From: an uncultured Gemmatimonadales bacterium
GTDB taxonomy: Bacteria; Gemmatimonadota; Gemmatimonadetes; Gemmatimonadales; GWC2-71-9
Assembly: GCA_963796335.1 (NCBI GenBank)
Contig: CAWCLG010000006.1
Location: forward strand, 132,540 to 196,539
DNA length: 64,000 nt
Reading direction: 5' to 3'
The notes beneath the pieces were generated by a model, which saw only the letters and a program-made list of their open reading frames with translations, ran no database searches and was not told where the DNA came from. Positions 14,889 through 56,241 of the stretch are shown here, piece by piece. How positions within the stretch are numbered: the stretch's first letter is position 1; every line of letters begins with the position of its first letter. Both the position numbers and the translations under genes were made by a program.

Positions 14889-14921
14889 GGAGACAAGATA
14901 CCCGCGAAGTGGCCGCCGACG

Positions 14922-15458: not shown

Positions 15459-15482
15459 GGGCGGGAAGGGGGTTAGGGCTGT

Positions 15483-20617: not shown

Positions 20618-20626
20618 ACGGCCTCC

Positions 20627-21790: not shown

Positions 21791-21799
21791 GACGATCTC

Positions 21800-22969: not shown

Positions 22970-23083
22970 GGGGTGACTCTCTGTATGGGACGCTCCCAGT
23001 CTGCGCCGCGCCCGTCTCCCCAATGCCCCCTGTCCGTCACCTGCCAGATGACGCCGGTGAGCGAGCCGTTACATTATGTCTCG

Positions 23084-23955: not shown

Positions 23956-24081
23956 CTCCCCTATCTTCTCTCGCTAGCACGCCTTACTAGGTATACGGCC
24001 ACCCGGCTTTGGTGGCTGTCCTGCCGAAGTACCTGAAGAATGCCCGCAGGGTTCGAGCCCACCGCGTGGAGGGCGGACACA

Positions 24082-26303
24082 ATGATCGATCAATCGATGG
24101 TAACCTCGGGATTCGATGTCGAGTTCCTGATGACCGAGGAGTTCATCCGGTACTTCCTGCTCTGCTCGCTCGACACGGGCTCGATTCCATGGTCGACCGA
24201 AGTGAGCGGTACGAGCGGGACGCCGCCCGTGCCGTACCGAACCGTGACGATCATCCATCCGCCCCACGAGCTCGAGGATCGCCGCCTCTATCCGGTCTTC
24301 CCCGAATTCGAGGGTCACGAGCACGCGCATCTCGATCTCACGCCCGCGTATTCGACGCAGGCGCAGGAGCTGCAGGTCACGATCCTCGCCGATGACCCGC
24401 GCGGCGCCGATCTCTCCGTCCGCGCGTTCCCGGCCGTCATCGACACACTGGTCACGCCGCCGAAAGTGCTGGTCGAGAATGTCCCAATCGATCTCGCCAT
24501 GGGCTTCAACGTCGTCGGCACCCCGCTCGACGACGGTTTCCTGGGCGACATCGGGATCGAGCTCGAGCTCGTCGACGTCTCCGGCCCGCTGATCGATGCC
24601 ATCGAGCAGCTGCTGAGCGCGCCCAACCCCCCGCCGCTGCCGACGAGAGCGGATATCCTCGCCCAGCTCAAGCTCACCATCGACCGGCGCGTTCCCTTCG
24701 CTGTCTCGGGTGGCGGTGCCCTTCAGCGCATCGAGACGCGCACGTTCACGGGCGACCCTGCTCGTCCGTCGGCGATCGGCGTGTACATCGACCTCGTTCT
24801 TCAGAAGGGGCCCGCCCCGGACGACTTCCTGACGACCATGCGCGGCGACACCGCTGACGCGCAGAACTTCCTCGAGCCGGGGATGAAGATGGGCTTCGCG
24901 TTCCCTCCCGGGACGTTTGCACTGCTGAGCGACGATCTCAGGTTCAAGATGGCGAAGCCGAAGCCCAACGACCCCACCCAGTACTACTACCCGCTCATGG
25001 ACGGCGACGACCAGATCGGCATCATCAAGGACATCAGCGTGCGGCCGGAGGTCGCGCAGTCGCCCAACATGCCACCGGTGTTCACGAACACCCTCGTCAT
25101 CGACATCCATGGAGAGTACGAGGTCGACAATTGGTTCGACCCCGACTTCCACCTGCGGCTCACCCTCCGTCCCGAGACGGGGCCGCGCGGAGTGTTCGAC
25201 TTCGACATCGACTTCGACCTCAGTCTGAGCGCCGCGGCGACGCTGTCGGCGCTCTTCGTCGGACTCGCGGTCTCCGTCTTCCTGCCGCAGCTCGGCATTC
25301 CGTTGACCATCCTGACGGTCATCGCCATCAAGGCCGTCGAGCACTACGGCGCCGAAGCAGCCGGCTCCGCCGTCGCGTCGGAGGGAGGCCTGACATCCTT
25401 CCTCGACACCTTGCCACACAAGCTCGTGGTGGAGCAGCGGCGCTGGGATCCGCTCTACTTCACCGACCACCGGGTCGAGACGGGAGACGTCGACGTCCTC
25501 GTCAATGCCGACGGTTTCGCGATGGCCGCCAACGAGCTCTTTCTCGGGCGACGGACGCGGCCCCTCACGAGACATGGTGATCCGCAGCGAGACCCGTGCG
25601 GCCGACGGAACGGTCGACGGGCTGGTCTATCGGGCGTCCGGTCTCCAGCCCTACCTGGCCACGGACATCAAAGCGATCGCCGCCGCCGTCGATCGCATGC
25701 CCTACACGGAACTCCTGCCCCCCGTAGCCGACATCGAGTCGCACCGGGTCGGCCTGACGCTCCAGCAAGTGCACGACCGTATCGACGCGGGCGACCGCCA
25801 CGTCGCCGATCTGGACTACCTGCCGGCGAAAGTGGATGTCATCGCACACCAGGTCTTTCAGATCCTCGCGGTGTCGCGCACCGAGGCCGACGAGGCGCCG
25901 GGCATCGCGCGCCGCCTGCTGCGCGCCGAATACCGAAGCCAGCACGCCGCCACCCTGCGCCCTCAGGCGATCGCCGAGCTGCAGGCCGAGCTCGGACGCG
26001 CTCCGACCGAGGACGAGATCCGCGCGCGCATCGACAAGATCGTCGCCGATGCCACAGAGCCGGGAGTTCCGGGCCGGGCAGGAGTCGAGCGGGACCGACG
26101 CCTGACGTTCGACTTGGAGCCCAGTGAGTTCGCCGCGCTGCAGCGCAGCCGGCATCCTGACGCTGGGTCGCGATCAGCTCGAGATCCGGACCACGCCCGA
26201 CGGCACCGTGTACTACCGTGACTACGAGCGTCCGTTCGAGCCCAACACCCCGACCCACGACAACCTGATGTCGCTGCCCCGCTACAAGCACGTGGATGTC
26301 TGA
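24082..26303 (+). pseudogene. large hypothetical protein (~740 aa if repaired) with a central hydrophobic helical hairpin; reading frame broken twice
   Basis: GC3-rich coding signal passes from frame 1 (24082-~25548) to frame 2 (~25550-~26145) to frame 3 (to TGA 26303). The junctions read ...ANELFLG|DGRGPSRDMVIRSE... and ...EFAALQR|AGILTLGRDQLEIR.... No family recognised. Confidence 0.55.
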
Positions 26304-26450
26304 GCCGGCCGCACGGGAGGCTCAAAATTGAGTCGGCTTCAATTCTGGCGGCATGATAGCATCGGGCGTAGGATAGGGGGGACTGCCACGCCCACCCCAG
26401 GGGCGCGGGGTCGCCTGGACCTCATATTTGCCACCCAGCGACTGCGAGCC

Positions 26451-28131
26451 GTGACGAAGCACCGCCGCTCTACCCGCACCTTGGCGAGCATTGCCCTGGC
26501 AGTACTCGCGGTCGCGTGCCGCGACGAATCCCCGTTGGGGCCTCCGGTGGACGTGGAGATCGATCCCGACGCTCCTCGGATCGAGACGATGATGGTCCAG
26601 GACACCGACACGATCACCGTGCCGCTGATCGACCCCGGAGCCGCCGCCGACGCCGGCGTCCTGGTGCGCTGGAGCTCGAGCGCTCCAGAGGTCCTGGAGC
26701 TGAGGTCCATCTCTGCGCCGGGCTTGCCACTGCGGGACTCGCTGCTGGCCCAGATGCGGGTCCAGACGACCGCTCACGCGCGCGGGACCGCTATCATCAC
26801 CGCGACGGTGGAGCAGGAAGGCATCGAGCCGCTGGCCTACCACGACACGGTCACGGTCCTGGAGCGCTGGATCCATGTGACCGCCGGCGGTGGATACACC
26901 TGCGGAATAACCGTGGCCCGCGACGCGTACTGCTGGGGAGGAGTCAACGGCCGGATTCTGGGGCTGGGGAACGGTGCAGCCGAAGGAAGCGATCGCCCCG
27001 TCCCGGTGCTCGGCGGCCTCAAGTTCAAGTCGCTCGACGCGGGGGGCGACATCACCTGCGGGCTGACCGATCCCGAGGGGCTTCTGTACTGCTGGGGCAG
27101 CAACACGTGGGGCGAGCTCGGCGTGGGCAACTTTCAGCCCTTGCTCCTCCCCGTGGCGCCTATCGGCGGGCGCACCTACAAGCGGGTGACCACCAGGGGA
27201 AGTGTCACCTGCGCGATCGCTAACGCAGTCCTGTCCGACTTTGAATTTGGTGAGACCAATACCTTCTGCTGGGGTCATGCCTCCTGGGGCGCACTGGGAG
27301 TCGGGGACATCGAGACGTCGGCCGCGGTGTCCTGCCCCTCGAACGCCTTCGACGACATCTGCGTGCCCATCCAGACGACTGGTGTCCTCGCCGATGCTTT
27401 CAACTCAGGACTGGTGATGCACTCGGTCTCGGTCGGTGGGAAATTCGCCTGTGGTCTGCCGGAGACTAAAAGCCTGATTCTTCCGGGTGACGTCTATTGT
27501 TGGGGACTCAACAACGCCGGCCAGATCGGGGTCCCTCCGGAGGAGACTGAAGACTGCGCGGACATCCCTTCGCTCCCGTTCGCCTGCTTTCCGACTGCGC
27601 AGTACGTTCTGGCCCCCCGGTTCCAGGCGCTCAGCGCCGGCGGAGCCTTCACCTGTGGCGTAACGATTCAGGACAAGGCGGTGTACTGCTGGGGCCAGCG
27701 GTACGGTCCGACCCCAGTGCCGGTGAACGGGCCTCCGATGGACAGCATTTCGGTCGGCGGGCGGCCTGATGATAACTTGAATGAGTTCGTCGACCAGACC
27801 CATGTCGTGCGCTCTGACTGCCCTCGGTGAGGCCTGGTGTTGGGGAAACAATCTGGCCGGGCAGCTCGGGTCCGGAGAGCCGGAGGGCTACCAGGAGCCC
27901 ACCCCATTTCATGCCGATATGCGGAAGGTGGCTCAGGATACGTTGCAGTTCGTTGCGATCAGTGCCGGTGAGACCACCGCGGAGCTGAACAGTCCCCACA
28001 CCTGCGCGCTGTCTCGCGCCGGAGCGATCTATTGCTGGGGAAATAATGCTGGGGGAGAGCTCGGAGTGCCCATTACACCTGCTACATTTCACGTCGCGGT
28101 TCCCACCCGAATCTCGGAGCCTGCACCGTAG
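26451..28131 (+). pseudogene. RCC1-repeat beta-propeller lipoprotein with N-terminal Big_2-like domain; one frame break
   Basis: GTG 26451 gives the lipobox LAVLAVAC. Repeated YCWG.N..G.LG motifs. The frame shifts at ~27803 exactly inside a repeat (..DQTH|SCALTALGEAWCWGNNLAGQLG). Confidence 0.7.
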
Positions 28132-28499
28132 GGGCGCTCGCCGATCAGCCGCTGTGGAGTCCTGATGGGCGATCGATCCTGACCCCGAACCGCGAATCAG
28201 AATGGGCGCCACCGATCGCTGGATCACAAACGCATCGATTGTGCCAGAAGTGGCGGTCAACGAGGCGAGGCGCGCGAGCGCGATGGTCGGTGTGCGGAAC
28301 GTCCCGTCGATCCAGTGGCTCATCCGGACACGACGCACGAGCGCTCGGAAGTTGGTACGCACGCGGCGCGCCGGATGCTCGTCCTGACGAGTCGGATGCG
28401 CGCTATTTCAGCCCCGCGCTACTGGTTTCCCCGTATCCGACGCCCCCCGGCACTTTATTCCGGCTTCCCCCCGATCCGCACGACCACTATCCTCTCCCG

Positions 28500-29942
28500 A
28501 TGCGTTCCTTGGAAGCTCTGCTGTCATCGGTCAATCTGCTCGCATTCCTTGCGCTGCTACTCCCCTGGCACCTCAGACCGAAGTGGATGCGCTACGCTGC
28601 GCCCGCCGCGATCTACGCCGCCTCCGCCCAGCTCCTCGTGGAAGGCCCTCGCTGGCAGATGGTTCCGGCCTACGCGCTGAGCCTGGTGTTCCTTCTCATC
28701 TGGCTGGTGGAACAGTTCCGGCCCCACCCGTCGACCAGACGTCCCACACTTTCGCTGGCCGCGTTCCGCGCGGTCGCCATGCTCGGACTCGCCGCGCTCG
28801 CCGTGTCCTTCGCGCTTCCCCTGCTCATCCCGGTATTTCGTCTCCCGCCTCCGACCGGTCCCCACCCGGTGGGCACAGTCACGTTCCACTGGGTCGATTC
28901 CACCCGTCCGGAGGTCATCACCGACGAGCCGGAGGACCGCCGCGAGCTGATGGTCCAGGTCTGGTATCCCGCCAGGCTGGTTTCGGAGGTGGAGCCCGCT
29001 CCGTACGTGGTGCATCCGGAGAAGCTTGAGGCGCTGGCGCGAATCCTTGGCCTCCCCCCGTTCACCTTCAGCCACCTGAAGTACGTCACCACCGGCGCGA
29101 GATCCTCCGCGCCCGTCGCCGGCGGCAGGCCCTATCCGGTCCTGCTCTTCGCCCACGGGCGGGGCGGCTTCCGCCAGCACAACACCGCGCAGATCCAGGA
29201 CCTCGCCTCGCACGGCTACGTCGTCGCGGCCATAGAACAGCCGTACGTCGCGAGCGGGGTGGTATTCCCCGACGGCCGCATCGCGCCGCTCGACCCCCGG
29301 ATGGTCGACTCGGCGCATCCGGGCCGGGCTCCGTTGCTCGACCGGATTCTCACCTTCCTCGCGCGGGACGCGCGCTTCACGCTCGACCGGCTGGCGGCAT
29401 TGAATCGGACGCCCGGCGGCGTGCTGACCGGCCGGCTGGACCTCGATCGCACCGGCATGTTCGGCCTCTCGCTCGGCGGCGCGGTGACCGCCGAGGCGTG
29501 CAGCCTGGAGCCTCGCATCCGGGCCTGTCTGATGATGGATGTGTTCAAGCCGCGCGAGGTCCTCGCGGAGGGGCTGCGCCAGCCCTCCATGTGGATCAAC
29601 CGCGATGAGCCTAGCATGCGGCGGCAGGGATGGAACCCGCGGGATATCGAGGAGACCCAGCGCGAGACGCGCGAGCTGTACGACGAGCTCCCGGGCGACG
29701 GATACCTCCTGCAGGTCCCCGGCGCATCCCGTGCTGACTTCTCCGATCTGCCGCTCTTCTCCCCGCTGACCCGGCCGCTGGGACTCACCGGACCGATCCA
29801 GCCGCGCCGGGTCCGCCGGATCGTCGATGACGTCTCGCGCGCGTTTTTCGACCGGCACTTGAAGAGGGACTCGACACCTCTGCTCGACAACCCGAGGACG
29901 CGCTTCCCCGAAGTGCTGTTCCGGTCCCGGCGCTCATCCTGA
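28500..29942 (+). CDS. membrane-anchored alpha/beta hydrolase (platelet-activating-factor acetylhydrolase-like)
   Basis: Four N-terminal TM helices, then a hydrolase fold with the nucleophile elbow GLSLGG and the motif YPVLLFAHGRGG. Confidence 0.7.
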   Translation: MRSLEALLSSVNLLAFLALLLPWHLRPKWMRYAAPAAIYAASAQLLVEGPRWQMVPAYALSLVFLLIWLVEQFRPHPSTRRPTLSLAAFRAVAMLGLAALAVSFALPLLIPVFRLPPPTGPHPVGTVTFHWVDSTRPEVITDEPEDRRELMVQVWYPARLVSEVEPAPYVVHPEKLEALARILGLPPFTFSHLKYVTTGARSSAPVAGGRPYPVLLFAHGRGGFRQHNTAQIQDLASHGYVVAAIEQPYVASGVVFPDGRIAPLDPRMVDSAHPGRAPLLDRILTFLARDARFTLDRLAALNRTPGGVLTGRLDLDRTGMFGLSLGGAVTAEACSLEPRIRACLMMDVFKPREVLAEGLRQPSMWINRDEPSMRRQGWNPRDIEETQRETRELYDELPGDGYLLQVPGASRADFSDLPLFSPLTRPLGLTGPIQPRRVRRIVDDVSRAFFDRHLKRDSTPLLDNPRTRFPEVLFRSRRSS

Positions 29943-29949
29943 GAAAGTC

Positions 29950-29994
29950 TTTGTCACCCTTCACTCCTCGCAGGCTTCGGGATCAGGGTGACAA
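29950..29994. repeat. degenerate member of the GTCACCC...GGGTGAC hairpin family
   Basis: TTTGTCACCCT-(23 nt)-AGGGTGACAAA, just after the hydrolase stop. Confidence 0.5.
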
Positions 29995-30088
29995 ACGCGA
30001 AACCCTCCTCCCACCGGCAGCGTCTTACTAGAAAGCGGTCCCCACGCCGCGTCTCACCGCGGGCCCCCTCCGCGCCGGAACTCGACCG

Positions 30089-33196: not shown

Positions 33197-33247
33197 GGTG
33201 TCTCCGATCGGGTCACCCCAATAACGCCCCAGGGCCGCCGGCGGTTC

Positions 33248-34463
33248 TCAGAACGTGGTCAGAGCGCCCAACTCCTGCTCGATATTGGCGATCGGGCTGA
33301 AGGCAAAGGTCCCGGACGCCGCCGCCCCAGAGGATCCCGATCAGGGTCGCGTTGCTGCCCGACCGGAGGAAGACCGGCGAGCCGCTGTCGCCTCCCGCTA
33401 CCCCGGCTGCCACGATCGACTGGCAGAGCTGGGTGATGTTGGTCCCGGAGACGTTCACCGTGACGCAGGTATTCGTGATGGTGCCGCGGGTCCAGCCGGT
33501 GGTGCGGCCGATCTTGTTGGCCTGCTGTCCCACGACCGGATTCCCCTCCGCCACGATGGTGAAATTGCCCTGGATCGTGAGCGAGCCGTTGTTCGCACCG
33601 GTGGTCTTCGCGATCCGGCCCAGGGTCGACTGGGTGCCGCTGGCGTAGGCGGCGCGCGAGGCGTCGCTCCGGCGGCAGCGCCGTCCGGCGGGACAGCCAC
33701 CGCCCGTGGTGTAGTTGGGATCGGCCACCTCGGTCGCGATCTGGCCCGGAGCCACCGACTGGGTGGGCTGCCAGTAGGGCGTGTTCTGCACTCCGCCCTG
33801 GACGTTGGTGCAGTGCGAGTTGGTGATGAACGAGCGCTGCCCGCTGCGGGTGGCGTTGAAGCCGAGGGTGCAGAGGAAGCCGGGGAAGTTGATCTGCACT
33901 CCGCCCTTAACCGGGCGGATCCGGTCCTGCAGAGTCGCCATGTTGCGGAAGGGCTCGACCACTTCCACCGTGACGGCCTTGGCCGGAACGCCGAGCCGCT
34001 CCACGGCGGCCCGCACCTGGGCCGCGGAGGTGCCGCGCTCGACGCCGATCTTGACCCGGTTCCGTGACTCGTCGGCATCCACATAGACCGTGCCGCGCTG
34101 CGCCAGCACCTCGCTCGACGCCTGACCCTGCCAGCGCTCCAGCGATGCCCAATCGAAATCCGCCTGTCGCACGACCAGCGCCGAAGCGCTCATCCCCTCC
34201 GCGCTGAGCGCCGCGCCCAGCGCGCGCTCGGCACTGGCGCGCTGCCTGGTGTCCTTGAGGTAGATGGTGGGCCGGCCGTTCTCGTCATAGAAAAAGCCGC
34301 CGAACCCCGGTACCTGGCGGGCGGCGGCAACGGGATCGGCGAACTGGCGAAAGGTGGGCTCGGAGACGGACGGCGAGGTGGGCTGATTCTCGTCGGTACA
34401 GGCGCCGGCGAAGAGTGCGGCTCCGGCGATCAGGCCCGCGAGCGAGAGAGTGCGCTGGTGCAT
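33248..34463 (-). pseudogene. secreted S1 (alpha-lytic/chymotrypsin-fold) serine protease; frame break near the C-terminus
   Basis: Lipoprotein-type signal, pro-region, and catalytic GDSGSPVF. After ..LIGILWGGG the conserved tail SGTFAFSPIANIEQELGALTTF* lies in the next frame (break ~33314-33326) and ends at TGA 33250-33248. Confidence 0.7.
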
Positions 34464-34575
34464 GAGGACCTCGGACAACGGGGAAACACGAAATGCGGAA
34501 CGTGGCCCGACGCGATTTGGGCGCCGGGCCACGTTGACAATGTTGCGAGGGGGAACGGGGAGCGCCAGTGCGGCG

Positions 34576-35178
34576 TTACGAACCGCGGACGCAGCGCACC
34601 GATATCCGGTAGGTCACGTTCACCACCGACCGCCAGATGGTGTTGCGGTTGGCGGCCACGTCGCGGTGCCAGGCGGTCGCGGAGACTTCGTCCGGCTCGC
34701 CCGCGGTGGAGGCCCAGTAGGCCGCGTTCCGGCCCATGGCCCGGGAGCTGTCGGCGCGATGGGGATCGATCCAGCCGGAGTAGCGCACGTTGAACCCGGT
34801 GTCGCCGCCGAACTTGAGCCGGCGGCCGAGCGGGTCGCCGCGGCTGTCCTCCTTCTCGATGTCGGCGTCCGACATGCCGAGCCAGCGCTCCAGATCCTGC
34901 CAGTCCTCTTCGCTGGGAACACGCCATCCCGCCGGGCAGGCCTTCAGCGCGTCGGCCAGGCGGTAGAGCCGGCCGTGGTCGGCGCAGTTGGCCTCGTCGC
35001 CCTCATAGCAGCGGCTGTCGGCGGTCTTGAAGCGGAGGTTCTCGGCGAACCACTGCAGCTTGCCGAGCGTGACGAAGGCGTAGCGGTAGCCGTCGCGGGG
35101 ATCGGTGAACCGATCGGGAGGACGGCCGGCGACGCCGAGCAGTGCGACGGAAGCGACGACCGCGAGGAGGGCCTGCAT
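34576..35178 (-). CDS. FISUMP (Fibrobacter succinogenes major paralogous) domain protein
   Basis: Signal peptide MQALLAVVASVALLG. WFAENL, GRLY, CPAGWRVPSEEDWQDLERWLG and GFNVRYSGW match the TIGR02145-type domain. Confidence 0.75.
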   Translation of the reverse strand: MQALLAVVASVALLGVAGRPPDRFTDPRDGYRYAFVTLGKLQWFAENLRFKTADSRCYEGDEANCADHGRLYRLADALKACPAGWRVPSEEDWQDLERWLGMSDADIEKEDSRGDPLGRRLKFGGDTGFNVRYSGWIDPHRADSSRAMGRNAAYWASTAGEPDEVSATAWHRDVAANRNTIWRSVVNVTYRISVRCVRGS

Positions 35179-35244
35179 GAATCGCTCTACGCCCCGCCGG
35201 CGGAAGGGGTTTCGCCGCGCGCGGGGCGGAGCGAGGTTCATTCC

Positions 35245-36784
35245 GTGGAAGTCTTCGAGATCGTCATCGCCTTGCTGCTGATCGGCGCCGCGCTGGCCGC
35301 CGGCGCCCGTCGCATAGGCGCGCCCTATCCCGCGCTGCTCGCCCTCGCCGGCGTCGGGCTCGCGCTGATGCCGGGCACGCCGGCCGTGAGTCTCGATCCC
35401 GAGCTGGCGCTCGCGCTGTTCGTGGCGCCGGTGCTGCTCGACGCGGCATTCGACGCGTCGCCCCGCGACCTGCGGGAGCACTGGCGCGCCGGTCGCGAGT
35501 CTCGCGCTGGCCACCGTCGTCCTCACGGTCGCCGCGGTCGCGTTGACGGTCCGCTGGCTGGTGCCCGACATGCCGTGGGCCGCCGCGATCGCCCTCGGTG
35601 CGATCGTGGCGCCGCCCGACGCGGCGGCCGCCACCGCCGTGCTCCGCCAGCTGCGCCCCCCGCACCGCCTGATGGTGATCCTCGAAGGCGAAAGCCTGTT
35701 CAACGACGCCAGCGCGCTGCTGATCTACCGGCTCGCCGTCGGCGCGGCGGCCGCGGGCGCGCTCTCCGCCGGCGAGATCGTCCCGCTGCTGCTGCTGGTC
35801 ACCGCGGGCAGTATCGTCCTCGGCATTGTGCTCGCCCGGCTCACCGGATTGATCATCCCGCGCATCCAGGACGTCGCCACCTCGGTCATCGTGCAGTTCG
35901 TCGGGACCTTCGCGGTGTGGATCGGCGCGGAGGCGTTGCACCTCTCCGGCATCATCACGATGGTGGTCTATGCGATGTCCGTCGCGCGGCGGGCGGGCGA
36001 GAGCATCCCGGCCCGAATCCGGATCCCGTCGTACGCCGTGTGGGAGGTCGCGGTCTTCCTGCTCAACTCGCTGGCGTTCATCCTGGTCGGCCTCCAGCTC
36101 AAGCCGATCGTGGGCACGCTGGACCGCAGCGAGCTGGTGAACTACGCGGTCATCGCGATGGCGGTGTGCGCCGCCGTCATCCTGGCGCGCATCGCCTGGG
36201 CCGCGGGCGCGCACCTGCTCCGCGGCCCGCATACCTCCGAGGGGCGCCGCCACGCGGTCGTCGTGGCCTGGTGCGGGATGCGGGGGACCGTCACACTCGC
36301 CGCCGCGCTGGCCCTGCCCGCGCGCTTTCCTCATCGCGACCTGATTCTGTTCACCGCGTTCCTCGTGGTGCTCGGCACGCTGGTGGTGCAGGGCCTGACT
36401 CTGAAGCCGTTGTTGAGCCTGCTCCGGCTCGAGCCGGACGACGAAGTCGAGCGCGAAGTGCGGCTGGCGCGGCTGGAGACCCTTCGGGCCGGCGCCGCGG
36501 CGCTGGAGGGCGCGGACTCGACCGGCGAGGCGGCCGATCTGGTGCGGCAGAAGTACCGGGTCCGGCTGCGGCGGGCCGAAGCCAGGGTGGACAGCGGGGC
36601 CTCGGGACACGCGGGCCAGGAGGAGCGGGGTTACGCGGACGCCGCGCGGGCGGCGATGGCGGCGGAGCGCCGGCGGCTCTCGGCGCTCCGCAGCGAGGGG
36701 ACGATCGGAGACGACGCCTATCACCGGGTGGAGGAGGAGCTGGACCGGGCGGAGCTGAGCGCGGAAGCGATGGATCCGGAGTGA
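35245..36784 (+). pseudogene. Na+/H+ antiporter (CPA1/NhaP family); one frame break
   Basis: TM1-2 (VEVFEIVIALLLIGAA...FDASPRDLREHWR) are in frame 1. The rest (PVASLALATVVL...APPDAAAATAVL...ESLFNDASAL...) is in frame 2, with the break at ~35484-35492. Confidence 0.75.
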
Positions 36785-36900
36785 TCGAGGAAGCGGATTT
36801 GATGATGAATTGATGGTCCTTTGTACACTTCCCTAACGCGCAGGCGCGCGTATATTCTCGCGAAATCCCCCTAGCATAGCACAGTTCCAGCACGGGACTC

Positions 36901-37824
36901 ATGCCTCAGCAGCCAAGGCTGTTGGTCGGTTCCTCTCCGTCGATGGGCAGGGCGCTGGAACAGTGCGCCCGATTCGCACGGGGCCGGAATCCGGTCGTCC
37001 TCATCGGCGCCCCCGGCACCGGCAAGACGCTGCTCGCCGAGCACATCCACCTGCTCTCCGGGCGGACCGGGGAGTTCGTGAAGCTGTCGGCGTCGCACAT
37101 CCCGCCCAACCTGGAGCTGGCCCAACTCGGCGGGCACACGAGGGGTGCCTACACCGGGGCGGACCGCGATCAGCCCGGATTGCTGGAGACGTCCCATCGC
37201 GGAACGTTCTTTCTCGACGAGCTGGGCAACGCGTCGCCGATGGTGCAGGAGATCCTCCTCCAGGTGATCGAGGAGGGCACCATCCGACGGGTTCGGGAGA
37301 TCCGACCCCGGCCCCTCGACGTCCGCTTCGTCTTCGCCACCAATGCTCCGTTGCAGGCGCTGGTGGAGAAGGGCCAGTTCCGGCGGGATCTCTACGACCG
37401 TCTGGGTTTCTGCAAGATCGCGGTGCCGTCGCTGGCGGATCGGCGCGAGGACATCGAAGCCCTGCTGCGGTCGATGCTCCAACGCGAGGCCGAGGTCGCG
37501 GGGCTGGCCGAGCCGCCACGACTCGAATCCCGGCTGGTGGACTGCCTCATCGCGGCGCCCTGGAAGGGGAACGTCCGGGAGCTGGAGAACCTGTGCAAGT
37601 ACCTGGTCATTTTCGGGGATCTCGGTCGCCCGCTCGACATCGGGGACCTCCCCTACGACTTCGCCGCCTCGCTGGGCGCCATCCTGCGCCACCAGCACGA
37701 AACCCCCACGCTGGCCCACCGCGCTCGGGAAGCACTCGCCGCGACGGGCGGTGACAAGTCGGCCGCGGCGAGAATCCTCGGCATCAGCCGCACGCACATT
37801 TATCGGCTGCTCAAGCCGGCGTGA
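36901..37824 (+). CDS. receiver-less sigma54 enhancer-binding protein (AAA+ plus Fis-type HTH), bEBP-1
   Basis: Walker A GAPGTGKT, GAYTGA variant of the GAFTGA loop, Walker B FFLDELG, RELEN, and the C-terminal HTH AARILGISRTHIYRLL. No N-terminal sensory domain; 307 aa. Confidence 0.8.
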   Translation: MPQQPRLLVGSSPSMGRALEQCARFARGRNPVVLIGAPGTGKTLLAEHIHLLSGRTGEFVKLSASHIPPNLELAQLGGHTRGAYTGADRDQPGLLETSHRGTFFLDELGNASPMVQEILLQVIEEGTIRRVREIRPRPLDVRFVFATNAPLQALVEKGQFRRDLYDRLGFCKIAVPSLADRREDIEALLRSMLQREAEVAGLAEPPRLESRLVDCLIAAPWKGNVRELENLCKYLVIFGDLGRPLDIGDLPYDFAASLGAILRHQHETPTLAHRAREALAATGGDKSAAARILGISRTHIYRLLKPA

Positions 37825-37826
37825 TA

Positions 37827-37898
37827 GGCAGGCGGGCAGGCGGACAGGCGGGCGGGCGGTCAGGCGGACAGGCGGGCGGGCGGGCGGTCAGGCGGGCA
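37827..37898. repeat. degenerate octamer array (GNCNGGCG x ~9), complementary to the downstream CTGTCCGC array
   Basis: ggcaggcg ggcaggcg gacaggcg ggcgggcg gtcaggcg gacaggcg ggcgggcg ..., starting 3 nt after the bEBP-1 stop. Confidence 0.8.
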
Positions 37899-37912
37899 GA
37901 CGCGAGGCATAC

Positions 37913-37999
37913 GTGTCATCCCGAGCGCAGCGAGGGATCTTGCCGGGCGGAGTTCGAAGTCAGCCAGACAAGATCCCTCGCTGGCGCTCGGGATGACAC
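37913..37999. repeat. long hairpin (about 30 bp arms) of the GTCAYCCYGAGCG family
   Basis: GTGTCATCCCGAGCGCAGCGAGGGATCTTG...CAAGATCCCTCGCTGGCGCTCGGGATGACAC, with a one-base bulge. Confidence 0.8.
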
Positions 38000-38005
38000 T
38001 CGTTA

Positions 38006-38160
38006 CTGTCCGCCTGTCCGCCTGTCCGCCTGTCCGCCTGTCCGCCTGTCCGCCTGTCCGCCTGTCCGCCTGTCCGCCTGTCCGCCTGTCCGCCTGTCCG
38101 CCTGTCCGCCTGTCCGCCTGTCCGCCTGTCCGCCTGCCCGCCTGCCCGCCCGCCCGTCTG
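38006..38160. repeat. octamer tandem repeat: CTGTCCGC x16 perfect, then about 4 degenerate copies
   Basis: Counted unit by unit: 38006-38133 is 16 identical copies. 38134-38149 is two CTGCCCGC copies, followed by decayed copies. Confidence 0.95.
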
Positions 38161-38162
38161 CC

Positions 38163-38208
38163 GTAACCTGTCCGCCGTGACGTTACACCGACCGCTGTAA
38201 CATGTTAC
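38163..38208. promoter_or_regulatory. candidate upstream activator sequence: four GTAAC/GTTAC half-sites including the perfect palindrome GTAACATGTTAC
   Basis: GTAAC at 38163, GTTAC at 38182, GTAACATGTTAC at 38197-38208. Centred about 70-110 bp upstream of the -24/-12 candidate. Confidence 0.4.
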
Positions 38209-38274
38209 GCGGCCGCTCTCCGCGGTCCCTCGCCCAAACTCCATCCATTCATTCACTTGCCTCCAGCGACACAA

Positions 38275-38291
38275 CCGGCACGTCGTCTGCC
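38275..38291 (+). promoter_or_regulatory. candidate sigma54 (-24/-12) promoter for the gsp operon
   Basis: ccGGCACGtcgtCTGCc has GG-N10-GC spacing and matches 9 of 11 consensus positions of TGGCACG-N4-TTGC. The GC lies 36 nt upstream of the gspE ATG. Confidence 0.5.
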
Positions 38292-38325
38292 TTGCGAAGA
38301 GCCGACCTCACCAGCCGGTGCCTCC

Positions 38326-39816
38326 ATGACTGCTGCGCTCGCAACCAAGCTTCCGATCCCCGAGTCCTTCGCGGCGGAGTACCTCGAGTACTACCGCATG
38401 CTTCCCCTCGAGCTGGCGGACGATCGCATCCGGGTCGCCATCTCCGGCGACCCTAACGCGGAGGCGATCGACGACCTGCGCGACTCCTACGGGGTGTCCG
38501 TGGAGCTGGTGCAGGTGCCGGAGGAAGAGCTGCTCGACGCGATCAGGCGAACGTTCGCGGCGTCGGAGTCGGTGGTCGAGCTGGTGCGCGACCTCAGCGG
38601 CGACACCGCACTGGCAGGCCAGGGTGGCGACGACTCCCTCGCCGACGTGCGGGATCTCGCGAGCCAGCCTCCGGTGATCCGTTTCGTCAACCTGCTCATT
38701 CGCGAGGCCCACGACGCCGGCGCGAGCGACATCCACCTGGAGGCGACCAGAGACGGCCTCCGGATCCGGCTTCGGATCGACGGCGTGCTCACCGAGCTGC
38801 CCAGTCCGCCGAAAGGCCTTCAGGCCGCGGTCGTCTCGCGGATCAAGCTGCTGGCCGAGCTGGACATCTCGGAGCGGCGCCAGCCGCAGGACGGGCGGAT
38901 CCGGGTGCGGCTCGAGTCGCGCGAGCTCGATCTCCGGGTCTCCACCGTGCCGACGCTGCACGGGGAATCGGTGGTGCTTCGGCTCCTCGACCGCGGCGGC
39001 CGGCCGGTGTGCCTGGAGGAGCTCGGCCTGCCTCCGGAGATCCTGGGGTCGTTCGAGCGGCTGGCGCGCAAGCCGCACGGCATTCTGCTCTCCACCGGCC
39101 CGACCGGCTCCGGCAAGACGACGACGCTGTACGCGGCGCTGGGCCTCCGCCACCCGACCGAAGAGAAGGTCATCACGGTCGAGGACCCGGTGGAGTATCA
39201 CCTGCCCGATGTCACCCAGGTCCCGGTGCACCAGAAGGCCGGCGTGACCTTCGCCGCCGCTCTCCGAAGCATCCTGCGCCAGGACCCCGACGTGCTGATG
39301 GTCGGGGAGATGCGCGACCGGGAGACCGCCGGCATCGCGGTTCAGGCCGCCATGACCGGCCATCTGGTCTTCTCCACCCTGCACACCAACGACGCCGCCG
39401 GAGCCCTCACCCGCCTCGCCGATCTCGGCATCGAGCCCTACATGGTGGCGGCGACGCTCGAAGGCGTGCTGGCCCAGCGGCTGGTGCGCCGGACATGTCC
39501 CGACTGCCGGGAGACCTACCGTCCCGATCCCGGCGTGGTGGCGCTCCTGGCGCAGCGGCCGGTCGGCTCCATCCCGCTGGAACGGGGGAAGGGATGTGCG
39601 GCCTGCCGGCACACCGGTTTCCGGGGCCGCATCGGAATCTTCGAGCTGTTGATCATGACCGACGAGCTGCGGCGCGATCTGGCGACCGGGATGGACATCA
39701 CCTCGGTGCGGCGGCACGTGCGCGACGCGGGCGTGGCGAGTCTCCGGGACGACGCCTGGGCCAAGGTCCAGGCCGGGGTCACTACCGTGGAGGAGGTGCT
39801 TCGTGTGGTCGAATGA
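38326..39816 (+). CDS. gspE: type II secretion ATPase GspE
   Basis: T2SSE N-terminal domain, Walker A GPTGSGKTTT, Asp/His boxes, and the tetracysteine CPDC...CAAC motif. Confidence 0.9.
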   Translation: MTAALATKLPIPESFAAEYLEYYRMLPLELADDRIRVAISGDPNAEAIDDLRDSYGVSVELVQVPEEELLDAIRRTFAASESVVELVRDLSGDTALAGQGGDDSLADVRDLASQPPVIRFVNLLIREAHDAGASDIHLEATRDGLRIRLRIDGVLTELPSPPKGLQAAVVSRIKLLAELDISERRQPQDGRIRVRLESRELDLRVSTVPTLHGESVVLRLLDRGGRPVCLEELGLPPEILGSFERLARKPHGILLSTGPTGSGKTTTLYAALGLRHPTEEKVITVEDPVEYHLPDVTQVPVHQKAGVTFAAALRSILRQDPDVLMVGEMRDRETAGIAVQAAMTGHLVFSTLHTNDAAGALTRLADLGIEPYMVAATLEGVLAQRLVRRTCPDCRETYRPDPGVVALLAQRPVGSIPLERGKGCAACRHTGFRGRIGIFELLIMTDELRRDLATGMDITSVRRHVRDAGVASLRDDAWAKVQAGVTTVEEVLRVVE

Positions 39817-40255
39817 GGCGGGGCAGCGGGGCGGATTTACCTTGATCGAAATCCTGGTCGTCATCACGGTGATCGCGATCCTGGCCTCCCTGGTGACGCC
39901 CATGATCTTCCGGAACGTGGGCGACGCCAAGGTCTCGGCTGCACGCGCCCAGGTGGAGATCTTCGGGCTGGCGCTCGACGCCTACCGGCTCGACAACGAC
40001 TACTACCCCTCGACCGCGCAGGGACTCGACGCGCTGCGGACGCTCCCGGGCGGCCTGCCCGCCGCGCGCAACTGGCGCGGTCCCTACCTCAGGAAGGCGG
40101 TTCCGCTCGATCCATTCGGGCGACCCTACCTCTATAGGAGTCCGGGCGAGCGCAACCCGGGGTCCTACGATCTGCTGAGCCTGGGGCGGGATGGGACGCC
40201 GGGCGGCAGCGGTGAAGACGCCGACATCACGTCCTGGGGTGAGGACCGCAAGTGA
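39803..40255 (+). CDS. gspG: major pseudopilin GspG
   Basis: Prepilin leader MWSNEAGQRG|GFTLIEILVVITVIAILASL with Glu+5, and GspG-type body (WRGPYL...DPFGRPYLYRSPG...DLLSLGRDG). Confidence 0.9.
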   Translation: MWSNEAGQRGGFTLIEILVVITVIAILASLVTPMIFRNVGDAKVSAARAQVEIFGLALDAYRLDNDYYPSTAQGLDALRTLPGGLPAARNWRGPYLRKAVPLDPFGRPYLYRSPGERNPGSYDLLSLGRDGTPGGSGEDADITSWGEDRK

Positions 40256-41446
40256 CCGGCCTCTATCGGTATCGCGCCGCCCGGGCGGACGGCGGCCTGG
40301 TGCGCGGCGAAGTGGAGGCCGCGACCAGTGCCCAGGCCGGCTCGCTGCTGGAGGAGCGGGGACTGTTTCCGCTCGCCGTCCAGCCGGTCTCGCGAGCGGA
40401 CCCCGCTCGGCGGAGCGCGCCCCGAGCCGAGCTCGCCGTGGTGTTCCGGAGCCTGGCCATGCTGACAGGGGCCGGCGTGCCTCTCGAGCGGGCGCTGAGC
40501 AGCAGCGAGTCGTTGGCCAAGGGTCCGCTGCGGTCCTGCCTCGCCGCCGGCCGCGTCGAGCTGCGAGCCGGGAAGAGTCTGGCTGACGCCCTCGACGGCG
40601 CGGGCGGAGTGATTCCGCGTGTCGCGCTCGGCGTGCTGCGGGCCGGTGAGCGCGCCGGACGGCTGGTGCCGGCACTGGAGCAGGTCGCCGTTCAGCTCGA
40701 GCGGGAAGCGGATCTGGCCGGCACCATCCGGCAGTCGATGGCCTATCCCGCGCTGCTGGCGACGACGGGAGTTGGCGTCGATGCTGGTCATCGGCGGTGT
40801 CGTGGTCCCCCGCTTCGCCGCGCTGCTCGCCGATCTGGGCCAGGATCTGCCTCCCGCCACCCGGCTGCTGCTCGCCGTCTCCGCCTTCGTCGGCCGCTAC
40901 TGGAGCGCGATCCTCGCCGCGGTCTGCCTGGTCCTATGGCTGGTGCTGACCTGGGCGCGGACGCCGGCGGGCCGGCTGAGTCTGCACGAATGGCTCCTCC
41001 GCTTGCCCGTGCTCGGTCCGATGCGCCACGGCCTCGCCACCGCGCGAGCCACCAGCGCGCTGGGCGGCGCGCTCGCGGCCGGGATGCCCATGCTGCCGGC
41101 GCTCGACGTCTCCGCCGGCGCCACCGGGGACGACGCGGTGACGCTGCGGCTGGCCGCGGCGCGGGAGCGGGTGACGAGAGGCGAGAGCCTGAGCCACGCC
41201 CTGAGTCGCGAGCGCGCCCTGACTCCCGCCGGACTCCAGTTGATCGAAGTCGGAGAGCAGAGCGCGCAGCTCGCCCTGATGGCGGGCCGTGCCTCGGACC
41301 TGTCGGGCCGGGACGCTGAGCGCCGGCTGCGGGCCCTCGCGAGCCTGTTGGAGCCGGCGCTGGTGGTCGCGCTCGGCGGGATGGTGGCCTTCACGGCCCT
41401 GGCGCTGCTCCAGGCGCTCTACGGCATCCGCCCAGGTGGCATGTGA
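40252..41446 (+). pseudogene. gspF: inner-membrane platform protein GspF; one frame break
   Basis: The first GspF repeat is in frame 1 up to ..MAYPALLATTGV. The continuation ASMLVIGGVVVPRFAALLADLGQDLPPAT... and the second repeat are in frame 2 (break ~40770-40782). GTG 40252 overlaps the gspG stop. Confidence 0.8.
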
Positions 41447-41715
41447 GCGGCACGACGCTGGTCGAGCTGATGGTGTCGCTGGCCATCCTGGGACTGCTGG
41501 CCGGATTGGCCGCGGCCTCGCTGGCGGGTGCGCCGGGGAGACCGCGGGGCGGGGAGGTCGCATTGGAAGCGGCGAGAGCCTCCGCCATCCGCTCGGCCCG
41601 GCGGGTCGCCTTCGTGGCGCCGGACGGCGGGAGGTTCCTGCTGCTGCCCGACGGCAGGGTCATCGGTCCCGGAATCGACCCGCTCACCGGCGAGGTGACG
41701 CATGTCCGGCAGTAG
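41443..41715 (+). CDS. minor pseudopilin (short, GspH position)
   Basis: GTG 41443 overlaps the gspF stop. Prepilin motif SG|TTLVELMVSLAILGLLAG with Glu+5. Confidence 0.65.
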   Translation: MSGTTLVELMVSLAILGLLAGLAAASLAGAPGRPRGGEVALEAARASAIRSARRVAFVAPDGGRFLLLPDGRVIGPGIDPLTGEVTHVRQ

Positions 41716-42052
41716 ACGCGGGGTCGCGCTGCTGGAGGCGATTCTGGCCGTCGCCATCCTCGCTGCCGCGGGCGCCGCCGCCGCGGAGCTCGCCGCGGCG
41801 GGACTTCGGGCCGAGGTCGAGTCCGGCGTCCGGGAGCGACAGCTGGCCGAGGCGAACAGGCTGCTCGCCGCGATGACCTTGCTGGGAAAGGCGGACTTGG
41901 ACCGGCGGCTGGGATGGCATCGGACCGGAAGGCTGGTCGTCGGGGTGCAGCGGCCGGCGAAGGGCCTGTATCGCATCGCGATCGCGTCCGCCGACATGCC
42001 AGAGCTGGAGACCCTGGTGACGGTGGTGCACAAGCCGGAGCCGATCCGATGA
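41702..42052 (+). CDS. minor pseudopilin (GspI position)
   Basis: RRG|VALLEAILAVAILAAAG prepilin-type N-terminus with Glu+5; 116 aa. Confidence 0.65.
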   Translation: MSGSRRGVALLEAILAVAILAAAGAAAAELAAAGLRAEVESGVRERQLAEANRLLAAMTLLGKADLDRRLGWHRTGRLVVGVQRPAKGLYRIAIASADMPELETLVTVVHKPEPIR

Positions 42053-42585
42053 GACCGCGGGTTCCCCGTGGCTTCACCCTGGTTGAAGTGTTGGTGGCGC
42101 TCGCCATCACCGCGCTGGTGACGCTGCTGGCCCATCAGCTCTTCGCCACGGTGGTCGACTCCGGCCACCGCGCCGTCGTGACCCGGCGGGCCCTCGATCG
42201 CGAGGCCAACGCGCGCCGTCTGCTCGGCGCGGCGTTTCTCTCCCTCGATGTCGGCAGCGACTCCACCGGCGGGTTCGTCGGGCGGCCGGACCGCGCGAGC
42301 TTCACCGCCTGGCTTCCGACGCCCGAGGGCTGGTCCGAGCTCCGGAAGGTCACCGTGGGATTCGAGGCCTCGGCGTGGGTGGCCCGGTGGGACGGCGAGC
42401 GAGTCCTGCTTGCGGACAGCGTCGAGGCGGTCGGGCTGGACTACCTGCTGGAGCCGGGCGTGCAGGCCGCCTGGGTGCAGGAGTGGATCTCGGCGGTCAG
42501 CGCCCCGCTGGCGGTTCGTGCCCGGGTGCGGCGGGCCGGCGGGCGGACCGACACGACGCTGTACCTGATCAAGGCCCGCGGATGA
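42049..42585 (+). CDS. minor pseudopilin (GspJ position)
   Basis: ATG 42049 overlaps the upstream stop (ATGA). PRG|FTLVEVLVALAITALV prepilin motif. Confidence 0.65.
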   Translation: MRPRVPRGFTLVEVLVALAITALVTLLAHQLFATVVDSGHRAVVTRRALDREANARRLLGAAFLSLDVGSDSTGGFVGRPDRASFTAWLPTPEGWSELRKVTVGFEASAWVARWDGERVLLADSVEAVGLDYLLEPGVQAAWVQEWISAVSAPLAVRARVRRAGGRTDTTLYLIKARG

Positions 42586-43430
42586 GACGGGGCGCCGCGC
42601 TGCTCACGGTCCTCTGGCTGGTGGTCGCATTGGCGGGAGCCGCCGGCGCGGCGCTCGCCGCCGTTCGCCTGGGAGCGAGCACCAGCCGGAACCGGGTGCT
42701 CCTCACCCGCGCCGACTGGGCGCGCGAAGCCTGCGCCGAGATCCTGCTGGGGCGGTACGCGGAGCAGAGGAAGGTGGGCGCCGTCTCCCGAACGGATCTC
42801 GGACGCGGTACCTGGTGCCGCCTCGAGATCGAAGACGCCGGCAACCGGCTCAATCTGGCGCATGCCACTCCGGAGATGATCAGGCTGCTGCTCCGCGACG
42901 ACAGCCTGTCCGATGCGCTGCTCGACTGGACCGATCTGGACGACGAGCCGCGGCCGTCGGGCGCCGAGGCGGAGTGGTATCGGAGCCGCTCGCGCCGGCC
43001 GCCCGGCAATCGGCCGCTGGCGGCGACGGCGGAGCTGGGCTACGTGCGCGGGTTCGACAGCTCGCGGGTGCGCGCGCTCGAGCGGCTGGTGACCACGCGC
43101 GGAGGGCCGACAGTCGACATCAACGTGGCGCCGCCCGAGGTGCTGGCGGTGCTGCCGGGCATGTCGCGGGAAGCCCTCGCCGACATCCTGGTCCAGCGAA
43201 GGCGCCGGATCGCATCGGCCGACGAGCTGCTCGCGCGGCTGGGACGCTCCGGCCGCGAGGGGCTCGTCGCCCGATATCAGGAGTTCACCGCGGTCGCGGG
43301 CTTCGGCGCCACTCGCTACGTGGTCCTGGCTGAGGGGGGCGTCGAGGGGACGCCGGTCACCAGCCGCGGCTGGCTCACGTTGGTTCCCGCCGACGGCCGG
43401 CTCGCGGTAGTCAGGCGCGAAGTCGAATGA
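42582..43430 (+). CDS. gspK: minor pseudopilin GspK
   Basis: ATGA overlap with the upstream stop. N-terminus MRRGAALLTVLWLVVAL lacks Glu+5, as is typical for GspK. NLNxA and helix-hairpin-helix-like region (INVAPPEVLAVLPGMS). Confidence 0.75.
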   Translation: MRRGAALLTVLWLVVALAGAAGAALAAVRLGASTSRNRVLLTRADWAREACAEILLGRYAEQRKVGAVSRTDLGRGTWCRLEIEDAGNRLNLAHATPEMIRLLLRDDSLSDALLDWTDLDDEPRPSGAEAEWYRSRSRRPPGNRPLAATAELGYVRGFDSSRVRALERLVTTRGGPTVDINVAPPEVLAVLPGMSREALADILVQRRRRIASADELLARLGRSGREGLVARYQEFTAVAGFGATRYVVLAEGGVEGTPVTSRGWLTLVPADGRLAVVRREVE

Positions 43431-44420
43431 GTCCGACGCTGCGGTTGACCGTGGGCGGCGGGCTCGCCCGGGCGGAGCTGCTGGGGCGGAAGGGCTGCCT
43501 CTGGGAAGCGGCGACGCCGTGCGAGACCCCGGCGGAGCTGCGCGAGGCCATCGGACACCTGGCCGGGGAGCCCGGCCTGCCGCGGCGGGGCGGACGCATG
43601 CGGGTGGTCGTGACGATGGGATCGCCCGTGGTTCAGGTGCGCTCGCTGCGAGGCCTTCCGCCGGTGCGGTCCTGCCGAGCTTCGAGCCCTGGTCGCGGCG
43701 CAGGCGGGCCGCTACTTCAGGCGCAACGGCAAACCGCTGGTGACCGATGCCGCCTGGCTCGGCAAAGGCGCCCGGCGCGAAGGTCACGCCACGGCCGTCG
43801 CGGTCGAGGAGCCGTGGATCGACGCCGTCCTCGACGGCGCGGCGGAAGCCGGACTCGAAGTCGGCGCCATCCATCCCGCGCTCGAGTCTGCGGGAAGCTC
43901 ACTGTCGCTGATCAGCGAGTCGGAGCGGGTGCGCCGGGATCGGCGGGGACGGCTGCTCGACCGGCGGCTGGCCGTGGCGGCTGCCGCCGTGTGGATCCTC
44001 TGCATCGGTGGCCTCTCGGCGCGGTTCGAACAACGGAGGAACACGGTCGAGGCGGAGATCGAGAAGCTGGCGGCCCCCTCGCAGGCCGTGGCCCGGGCTC
44101 GGCGGTCGCTGCACGATGCGTCCGCGACCGTCGCCGCGTTGGAGGAGGCGAGCCTCCAGCGCGGCGCGCTGCTGGATCGGATCGGGCGCATCGCGGCCGC
44201 GCTGCCCGACTCGGCCTACCTCGCGTCACTCACGGTGGACCTGGGGGGCAGCGGGTCGATGACGGGTGAGGCCCGCCATTCGTCCCAGGCGCTCGCTCGG
44301 CTGGAAGCGGAGGGCGCTGTCCTCGCACCCCGTCCCCTGGGTCCGGTCACCAGCGAGTCGGACGGCGGCCGGGTGTGGGAGCACTTCTCTATCGGCTTCG
44401 GCGCGGAGCCGGCGCGGTGA
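43427..44420 (+). pseudogene. GspL-like assembly protein (cytoplasmic PilM/GspL-like half, TM helix, PilN-like half); one frame break
   Basis: Frame 3 reads ..VVQVRSLRGLPPV. The continuation PAELRALVAAQAGRYFRRNGKPLVTDAAW... is in the next frame (break ~43660-43676). There is a single TM helix (LAVAAAAVWILCIGGL). Confidence 0.65.
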
Positions 44421-56127: not shown

Positions 56128-56241
56128 AGCAGTCGCTGAAGACCTTTGGCTAGCATCACATGGGCAGAAGCAGGGTTGAAGTCCCAGGTCCGCAACCCTC
56201 TCTGCCCTGGAGCCTCCGGCCCCCCGCGGTATTTTACTCGC

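Follow-up and report, generated by a model that had tools for sequence, protein, structure and literature searches.

The window, a 64,000-nucleotide stretch of DNA from an uncultured Gemmatimonadales bacterium, carries between 25.5 and 43.7 kb six genes with seven frame breaks, all of which are restored by skipping one base (+1). The frame plot of third-position GC (GC3) together with a codon-LOD Viterbi path places same-strand frame switches at 25540, 26146, 27808, ~33307 (minus strand), 35482, 40765, and 43672, and alignment against intact relatives gives the exact placement listed in Table 1. The count and the direction of correction proposed in an earlier note on this DNA are borne out by the frame plot, the Viterbi path, and the intact orthologues. 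Its positions were mostly close: ~35488 is exact and ~40776 falls inside the aligned interval, while ~25548 lies 24 nt away from the extra base at 25572.

Table 1. The six interrupted genes, with window coordinates and the placement of each frame break (extra base in brackets)
Gene or product	Coordinates	Strand	Frame break	Sequence context
Gene A, conserved hypothetical protein of ~740 aa, no Pfam domain	24040..26303	+	extra A at 25572; extra C at 26149	GAG[A]CAT; CAG[C]CGG
RCC1-repeat lipoprotein	26328..28131	+	~27804	CAT[G]TCG, giving ...DQTH followed by SCALTALGEAWCWGNN...
Secreted S1 serine protease (streptogrisin / alpha-lytic type)	33251..34532	-	~33317, 22 codons before the stop	GGC GGC GGC [G] TCC
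NhaP-type Na+/H+ exchanger	35110..36784	+	extra base at 35488	CGC[G]CCG
gspF (T2SS platform protein)	40252..41446	+	within 40771-40777	
gspL-like T2SS gene	43427..44420	+	~43670	CGG[T]CCT

Each break is a 1-nt indel within otherwise conserved, codon-biased coding sequence, and all orthologues examined keep a single frame across the site. The old frame meets no stop at any of the seven switch points and can be read on past the break sites over as much as 1.4 kb. The new frame is open to the orthologous stop, with a GC3 of 0.85-0.95 downstream of each break, and neither codon bias nor conserved residues are diminished on the 3' side. We looked for stops, larger deletions, and IS elements beside the breaks in the 25.5-43.7 kb region and found none. 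None of the seven sites lies in a homopolymer of three or more bases, in line with what had been noted from the sequence before.

Both junctions in gene A are crossed by over 100 full-length homologues of 736-745 aa, with identities of up to 89%. In the nucleotide alignment with three orthologues of 90% identity (L078, L079, and L080), the orthologues show exactly two 1-nt gaps, and these two sites are the only ones for which the exact inserted base is known. The contigs with this 90%-identical gene A were considered as a close relative for wider indel counting and rejected, gene A being the only part that matches.

The RCC1 lipoprotein shows RCC1, RCC1_2, and WD40_RLD repeats on both pieces in the Pfam search. 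Paralogues from relatives span the junction without a change of frame, with the match of the present assembly (G000) split into 1-264 and 261-368. No close orthologue was found in the relatives, the paralogues reaching 38-43% identity only, and this break is therefore the least tightly placed of the seven. The secreted protease matches SGPA, alpha-lytic protease, and glutamyl endopeptidase in the PDB. Four orthologues with 76-80% identity (G014, G032, G009, and G033) cover residues 1-229 in one open frame, G000 only residues 1-215, and the C-termini of the four match the next frame of the window, which reads SGTFAFSPIANIEQELGALTTF up to the stop. The four read GILWGG..SG.TF.FSP...ELGALTTF followed by a stop in one frame. 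The earlier note had described family motifs continuing seamlessly in the next frame, and this holds for TH followed by SCAL in the RCC1 lipoprotein and for the LWGG stretch in the four protease orthologues.

For the NhaP-type exchanger, whose true start is probably near 35150-35250, the Pfam Na_H_Exchanger domain is divided into positions 4-70 on the first piece and 74-373 on the second. The matching segments of ten orthologues stop at 35487 and resume at 35489, passing from residue n to n+1, and the orthologues are uninterrupted proteins of 520-530 aa. Placement in the T2SS region is by protein-level bracketing only, the best relative DNA being ~70% identical and the best GspE 75%. In GspF, the first piece ends inside the first T2SSF domain, at position 109 of 125, and the second piece carries the second T2SSF domain. 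Over 30 orthologues, taken from contigs of short-read origin and from MAGs, pass from frame 1 into frame 2 at 40770-40778, their query residues running on without a gap. The gspL-like gene is matched by about 15 orthologues in frame 2 up to 43669-43672 and in frame 3 from 43671-43680, again with consecutive residues, and the orthologues of G040 and G027 cross this junction in one open frame.

The flanks of the window (0-24 kb and 44-64 kb) are clean, as had been claimed: all gene junctions are stop-bounded and the Pfam architectures are full-length, including MutS I-V, ClC, GspD, Rhs, and UvrD. In-frame stops had been suspected between same-frame open reading frames at 13026-16649 and 19436-23068, which turned out to be separate genes. 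The contig average predicts 1.1 breaks in the 18 kb, against 5 called by the detector and 7 true ones (Poisson P = 0.005).

The whole assembly (4.29 Mb in 7 contigs of up to 1.82 Mb, 82.85% completeness), from whose long contigs and low completeness we infer a sequencing platform of the long-read type, was searched with a calibrated codon-usage frame tracker. At 70% GC, a criterion based on how far away the next old-frame stop lies is biased towards +1 calls, and the tracker was therefore calibrated on insertions and deletions simulated in clean sequence, with sensitivities of 0.78-0.86 for the former and 0.56-0.76 for the latter. The census yields 485 strong breaks, 388 with an extra base (+1) and 97 with a missing base (-1), and the assembly as a whole is estimated to contain about 500-700. 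Corrected for sensitivity, these become ~500 and 170-220, a ratio of insertions to deletions of ~2.2-2.9 to 1, with ~74% of breaks carrying an extra base. The earlier note had given the uniform direction of its seven breaks a chance of 1/64 under equal probabilities of +1 and -1. That assumption fails at the genome-wide proportion, under which seven of seven has P ≈ 0.12, so the uniform direction follows from a genome-wide insertion bias and calls for no special local process.

The breaks are strongly patchy, at a scale of 10-250 kb. The densest tenth of 10-kb bins holds 69% of the calls, while 297 bins (70%) are empty compared with 142 expected under a Poisson distribution; the median spacing is 1.1 kb against an expected 6.1 kb, break-free stretches reach 192 kb, and contigs range from 0.4 to 5.6 breaks per 10 kb. 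Within patches, +1 and -1 directions are randomly mixed. GC content was considered as a driver of the patches and discarded, the correlation being weak (Spearman rho 0.15). We found no homopolymer enrichment at the breaks of the assembly and no dominant k-mer over 370 sites, the best candidates being 1.3-2.5x enriched and present at <30% of sites.

The breaks also reach indispensable genes: fusA and rpoC carry two each. In the str operon, fusA falls into three pieces, at model positions 1-169, 167-517, and 518-690 in frames 2, 0, and 2, and rpoC runs through frames 1, 0, and 1; gyrA, ileS, alaS, and secA are intact.

Among relatives, the density of breaks is a property of the assembly and not of the lineage. 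Two of the other long-contig, lower-completeness relatives, G004 and G027, have 25 '+1' calls per Mb each and a third, G015, has 350 per Mb, compared with about 90 per Mb in G000. The calls in G004 and G027 were first suspected to be false positives of the tracker, and inspection showed real breaks in ClpX (G004), AcrB, TolC, FtsX, and HisKA, so that short-read-type and ~100%-complete genomes were added as controls. In 590 kb of these short-read-type MAGs and ~100%-complete genomes from the same genus and order, no '+1' call was made. Set against CheckM completeness, the density per Mb is 0 at 100%, 25 at 99% and 92%, 90-113 at 83%, and 350 at 63%.

The genome-wide patches, the breaks in fusA and rpoC, the lack of a motif, and the absence of breaks in short-read-type and ~100%-complete relatives, set beside their presence in other long-contig assemblies of the clade, lead us strongly to favour assembly or consensus error. 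The seven breaks are very probably spurious insertions introduced in building the consensus of a MAG of the long-read type, and the genes themselves intact. Single bases would have been inserted into the consensus during a metagenome assembly of the long-read type, so that frames are broken by some 500 spurious extra bases and by 170-220 missing ones. Such errors would gather in patches, presumably where coverage is low, polishing poor, or strains heterogeneous, and the stretch from 25.5 to 43.7 kb is one moderate patch among many. The earlier note had already considered localised consensus insertion errors as one of two explanations, correctly in our view, although the errors extend well beyond these 18 kb. 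Mira, Ochman, and Moran (2001) are said to have found real bacterial mutation to be deletion-biased, and the excess of insertions, being opposite to that bias, counts for error. The extra bases are called artefacts from sequence comparison.

Genuine, recent, and clustered pseudogenisation, in which seven real 1-bp insertions would have knocked out gene A, the RCC1 lipoprotein, the protease, NhaP, GspF, and GspL in the living population, is very unlikely. The breaks are undeniably present in the deposited sequence, and in principle a cell could do without any of the six genes; since these are not essential, the argument from fusA and rpoC leaves room for lesions at these seven sites. However, like breaks occur by the hundreds across the genome, essential genes included, and their density follows assembly type and completeness across relatives. 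The region shows none of the accompanying damage expected of decay, the coding signal downstream is undiminished, and insertions outside homopolymers are, from general knowledge, the reverse of the usual bacterial indel spectrum. There is a slim chance that at least part of the population really carries the insertions in its DNA, for example through localised error-prone repair or mutagenesis adding single bases in patches, in which case the T2SS, NhaP, and the protease would really have been inactivated recently.

Slimmer still is the chance that the extra bases are real minority or strain variants or collapsed polymorphic sites, for instance both alleles written side by side. The scale of the patches, which would then mark microdiverse regions, the position of the insertions outside homopolymers, and the several candidate extra bases that directly follow a third codon position (CGC[G], CGG[T], and GGC[G]) are consistent with such an origin, but the two sites with a known base (AG[A]C and AG[C]C) offer no obvious synonymous allele pair. 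Even then, the extra bases would count as an artefact of how the consensus was built. Programmed +1 recoding, whereby ribosomal frameshifting, quadruplet decoding, or base removal at the RNA level would restore the proteins, is extremely improbable, and the earlier note had also judged it the less likely explanation: the shared direction of the seven breaks and the predominance of +1 genome-wide would suit it, but the sites share no motif, their contexts differ (Table 1), they hold neither a stop nor a rare codon in an old frame that simply stays open, about a quarter of the breaks genome-wide are -1, randomly mixed with +1, and short-read relatives of the same genus have none. The comparison with orthologues that the earlier note had asked for shows them unshifted at the matching positions, reading straight through every site.

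The result is mainly about data quality, and the frame breaks are in all likelihood not a real biological feature. The six genes, including GspF and the GspL-like gene, should be annotated as intact, and the breaks do not weaken the case for a functional sigma-54 / T2SS / Rhs island in the window. The completeness of 83% is an underestimate due to broken marker genes. Pseudogene counts, gene-length statistics, and claims of split genes from G000, G004, G015, and G027 need frameshift-aware handling, and builders and curators of MAG collections should be made aware of this patchy error profile, with its bias towards insertions outside homopolymers.

Programmed +1 ribosomal frameshifting is known from prfB (RF2) and is widespread in Euplotes. 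There, as here, a +1 correction is needed for the full protein. Those systems shift at a defined site that orthologues conserve, made up of a slippery codon with a stop or a rare codon, or marked by an internal Shine-Dalgarno sequence, whereas the present assembly has no common shift site and unshifted orthologues. Pseudogene-rich genomes, such as those of Mycobacterium leprae and of recently host-restricted symbionts or pathogens, also have many genes interrupted by frameshifts. There, essential genes are spared, the lesions comprise stops, deletions, and IS insertions, the indels are deletion-biased and repeat-associated, and the damage is spread genome-wide. The present assembly differs in its broken fusA and rpoC, in having almost only 1-nt indels with insertions dominant, and in the 70% of 10-kb bins that are untouched.

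Gene-fragmenting indel errors in long-read assemblies were reportedly described by Watson and Warr in 2019, and the likeness to errors in Nanopore and PacBio CLR assemblies is close. There too, single-base indels split conserved genes by the hundreds per genome, essential genes included, marker completeness comes out low although the contigs are very long, relatives that were well polished or assembled from short reads are free of such breaks, and the density varies with local data quality. Fragmentation of genes by indels is documented in long-read assemblies as coverage-dependent (PMC9262707, PMC12007338), and IDEEL, proovframe, Homopolish, and Kastor were made to deal with it (Sereika et al. 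2022, PMC9262707; Kastor 2025, PMC12007338). The published Nanopore error profile consists mainly of homopolymer deletions (PMC12007338, PMC9262707), whereas here extra bases make up about three quarters of the breaks, with no link to homopolymers. Such an insertion-rich profile would fit a raw-read insertion bias of the PacBio CLR-like kind, or a mixed-strain consensus, better than Nanopore.

The seven frame breaks that an earlier note had described in six genes at 25545-43676 are present, each of them inside one gene, and, given the genome-wide evidence, they are very probably consensus insertion errors of the assembly, one of the two explanations offered in the note and supported by the spread of such breaks over the genome, the essential genes hit, and the clean relatives.

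The coding frames of the window (GC content of about 70%) were defined via GC3 periodicity and followed with a 7-state Viterbi tracker, whose codon log-odds came from 642 long ORFs of this genome. In the 24-45 kb region, it switches frame on the same strand at 25540, 26146, 27808, ~33307 (minus strand), 35482, 40765, and 43672, every time into the frame reached by skipping one base, as the note had claimed for the direction. The old frame has no closing stop at these switches and remains open for 50 to 1424 nt. The remaining junctions in the 64 kb are normal gene boundaries bounded by stops, and the regions at 0-24 kb and 44-64 kb, already described as free of breaks, contain intact genes, including MutS with all five domains, ClC, a beta-CASP RNase, three PD40 paralogues, GspD, Rhs, and a UvrD-exonuclease fusion.

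Pfam matches on the unmodified pieces and orthologue alignments agree with the tracker. The Na_H_Exchanger positions 4-70 and 74-373 of NhaP lie on separate pieces, the first T2SSF domain of GspF is cut at 109/125, and both pieces of the RCC1 lipoprotein, for which the orthologue search returned paralogues only, carry RCC1 repeats. For the large unknown protein (gene A), both junctions are spanned by over 100 full-length homologues of 736-745 aa, with identities of up to 89%; three orthologue genes, aligned to the window at the nucleotide level with 90% identity, share the only two 1-nt gaps, all other gaps being multiples of three. Four orthologues of the S1 protease (76-80% identity) read ...GILWGG..SG.TF.FSP...ELGALTTF* in a single frame, and relatives likewise read in one frame through the sites in gene A, NhaP, GspF, and the GspL-like gene. 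The coordinates of the note are within 0-24 nt of the placements listed below, and the observation that no break sits in a homopolymer holds for all seven sites (runs of 3 or more bases).

Placement of the seven frame breaks (window coordinates; the base to be skipped is in square brackets)
Gene	Position	Local sequence or junction	Basis
Gene A, break 1	25572	extra A, GAG[A]CAT	1-nt gap in all three orthologues
Gene A, break 2	26149	extra C, CAG[C]CGG	1-nt gap in all three orthologues
RCC1 lipoprotein	~27804	TH|SCALTALGEAWCWGNN	repeat continuity
S1 protease (minus strand)	~33317	shift needed within GGC GGC GGC [G] TCC	
NhaP	35488		ten orthologues: residue n to 35487, residue n+1 from 35489
GspF	40771-40777		>30 orthologues, short-read metagenome contigs and MAGs
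GspL-like	~43670		about 15 orthologues, short-read metagenome contigs and MAGs

Gene A itself (24040-26303, ~740 aa, no domain) has counterparts on three metagenome contigs (L078:9965-12237, L079, and L080) with 89-90% nucleotide identity. The similarity stops at the gene borders, the neighbouring genes being unrelated or at most 70% identical to this genome, and some of the homologues are labelled Acidimicrobiia or Actinomycetota, which suggests that this single gene is strongly conserved and moves horizontally. Compared to the three orthologues, 12 nt are missing in frame after 25657.

The ORF at 34576-35703 (minus strand, 375 aa) has a Fib_succ_major domain in its C-terminal half only (34576 to ~35070), and its N-terminal half and the NhaP N-terminus overlap on opposite strands. 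The true start is probably near 35110, which would leave almost zero intergenic space to the divergent NhaP gene. NhaP and the S1 protease are divergent here with the Fib_succ_major gene in between, whereas they adjoin convergently in the closest relative found (G032:C3:51648-53918, 76-80% protein identity). The three tandem PD40 (WD40-like beta-propeller) paralogues at 19436-23068 (minus strand, ~390 aa) share one reading frame, with a single stop codon between neighbours. The UvrD-type helicase at 56146-59157 (plus strand, 1003 aa) carries an RNase_T/DEDD exonuclease domain between its N- and C-terminal helicase domains. Upstream of the T2SS operon, a sigma-54 activator (36901-37824, plus strand) begins at the AAA+ domain, without a receiver or sensor domain; a second one (6724-8113, minus strand) is complete and of the response-regulator type.

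The source assembly comprises 4.29 Mb in seven contigs, the longest being 1.82 Mb, with a completeness of only 82.85%; the window corresponds to 132540-196539 of contig C6, and GspE relatives place the organism in the Gemmatimonadales. The same tracker, with strong coding contrast demanded on both sides, results in 485 calls, 388 with an extra base (+1) and 97 with a missing base (-1). Since a +1 slip in a GC-rich genome leaves the old frame open for longer, which could bias the detector, it was calibrated with single bases inserted into or deleted from clean sequence; it detected the insertions with a sensitivity of 0.78-0.86 and the deletions with one of 0.56-0.76. The corrected numbers are ~500 extra-base and 170-220 missing-base breaks, an extra-base share of ~74%. 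With this share, seven of seven breaks in one direction have P ≈ 0.12, so that the uniform direction stands but the chance of 1/64 attached to it does not.

The calls are patchy. The densest tenth of the 10-kb bins holds 69% of them, no call falls in 297 of the 425 bins, where a Poisson distribution would leave 142 empty, the median spacing is 1.1 kb versus 6.1 kb under uniform placement, and break-free stretches reach up to 192 kb. Within patches, +1 and -1 calls are randomly mixed, and the density ranges from 0.4 per 10 kb on contig C5 to 5.6 on contig C2. The 18-kb stretch, with 5 calls detected versus 1.1 expected from the contig average (P = 0.005), is one moderate patch of this genome-wide phenomenon.

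Essential genes are also hit. In the str-operon fusA, the model match falls into three pieces (positions 1-169, 167-517, and 518-690), and rpoC has two frame changes within its last ~550 nt; according to the inspected translations, each of the two genes has one break from an extra base and one from a missing base, falling at conserved motifs, e.g., PIQLPVGLG|EMFTGHIDVL and RQSGGKGQYGHV...|GFIFEDKIVGGVIPREFIK. The genes gyrA, ileS, alaS, and secA are intact. As rpoB is missing from the entire assembly and rpoC is truncated by the beginning of contig C2 (C2:1-2316, model match from position 701), the assembly breaks within the rpoBC operon.

The first controls, 200 kb each from the 3-contig assemblies of the relatives G004 and G027, show about 25 +1 calls per Mb, which on inspection proved to be true frame breaks, located in ClpX, TolC, AcrB, a histidine kinase, and FtsX/MacB (L017:5997 (G004), L021:10266 and 12306, L020:5895, and L028:18801 (G027)). 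The long-contig relative G015 (63% completeness; L047-L048) reaches 350 calls per Mb. The clean controls, which yield zero +1 calls and one -1 call, comprise 350 kb from fragmented MAGs of short-read type belonging to the same genus and order, plus 240 kb from ~100%-complete genomes. The break density therefore tracks assembly type, dropping as completeness rises, and is not a lineage trait; the same +1 breaks are a data-quality problem common to the GTDB representatives G004, G015, and G027. The collections searched held no same-species assembly.

Since the six affected genes are non-essential, a genuine lesion at any single one of the seven sites is conceivable, but improbable. The genes fusA and rpoC are broken too, lesions that cannot be compatible with a living organism, and real bacterial mutation has an indel spectrum biased towards deletions and tied to repeats, the reverse of the insertion excess outside repeats seen here. 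Programmed +1 frameshifting was rightly judged unlikely, as break calls show no homopolymer enrichment, no k-mer stands out among 370 sites (best 1.3-2.5-fold, in a minority of sites), and the local contexts of the seven breaks all differ, which speaks against slippery or quadruplet signals. The frame breaks are not a biological feature, and all six genes, gspF and the gspL-like gene among them, should be regarded as intact. Candidate sources of the consensus errors would be an insertion bias of the raw reads or a consensus built over mixed strains.

Indel-driven gene fragmentation is well documented for long-read assemblies and is coverage dependent (PMC9262707, PMC12007338). Sereika et al. 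(2022) described frameshift errors, the IDEEL test, and a threshold near 40x (PMC9262707), and Kastor (2025) a draft with up to 23% of genes pseudogenised (PMC12007338). The published Nanopore profile consists mostly of homopolymer deletions, whereas non-homopolymer insertions predominate in the assembly studied here.
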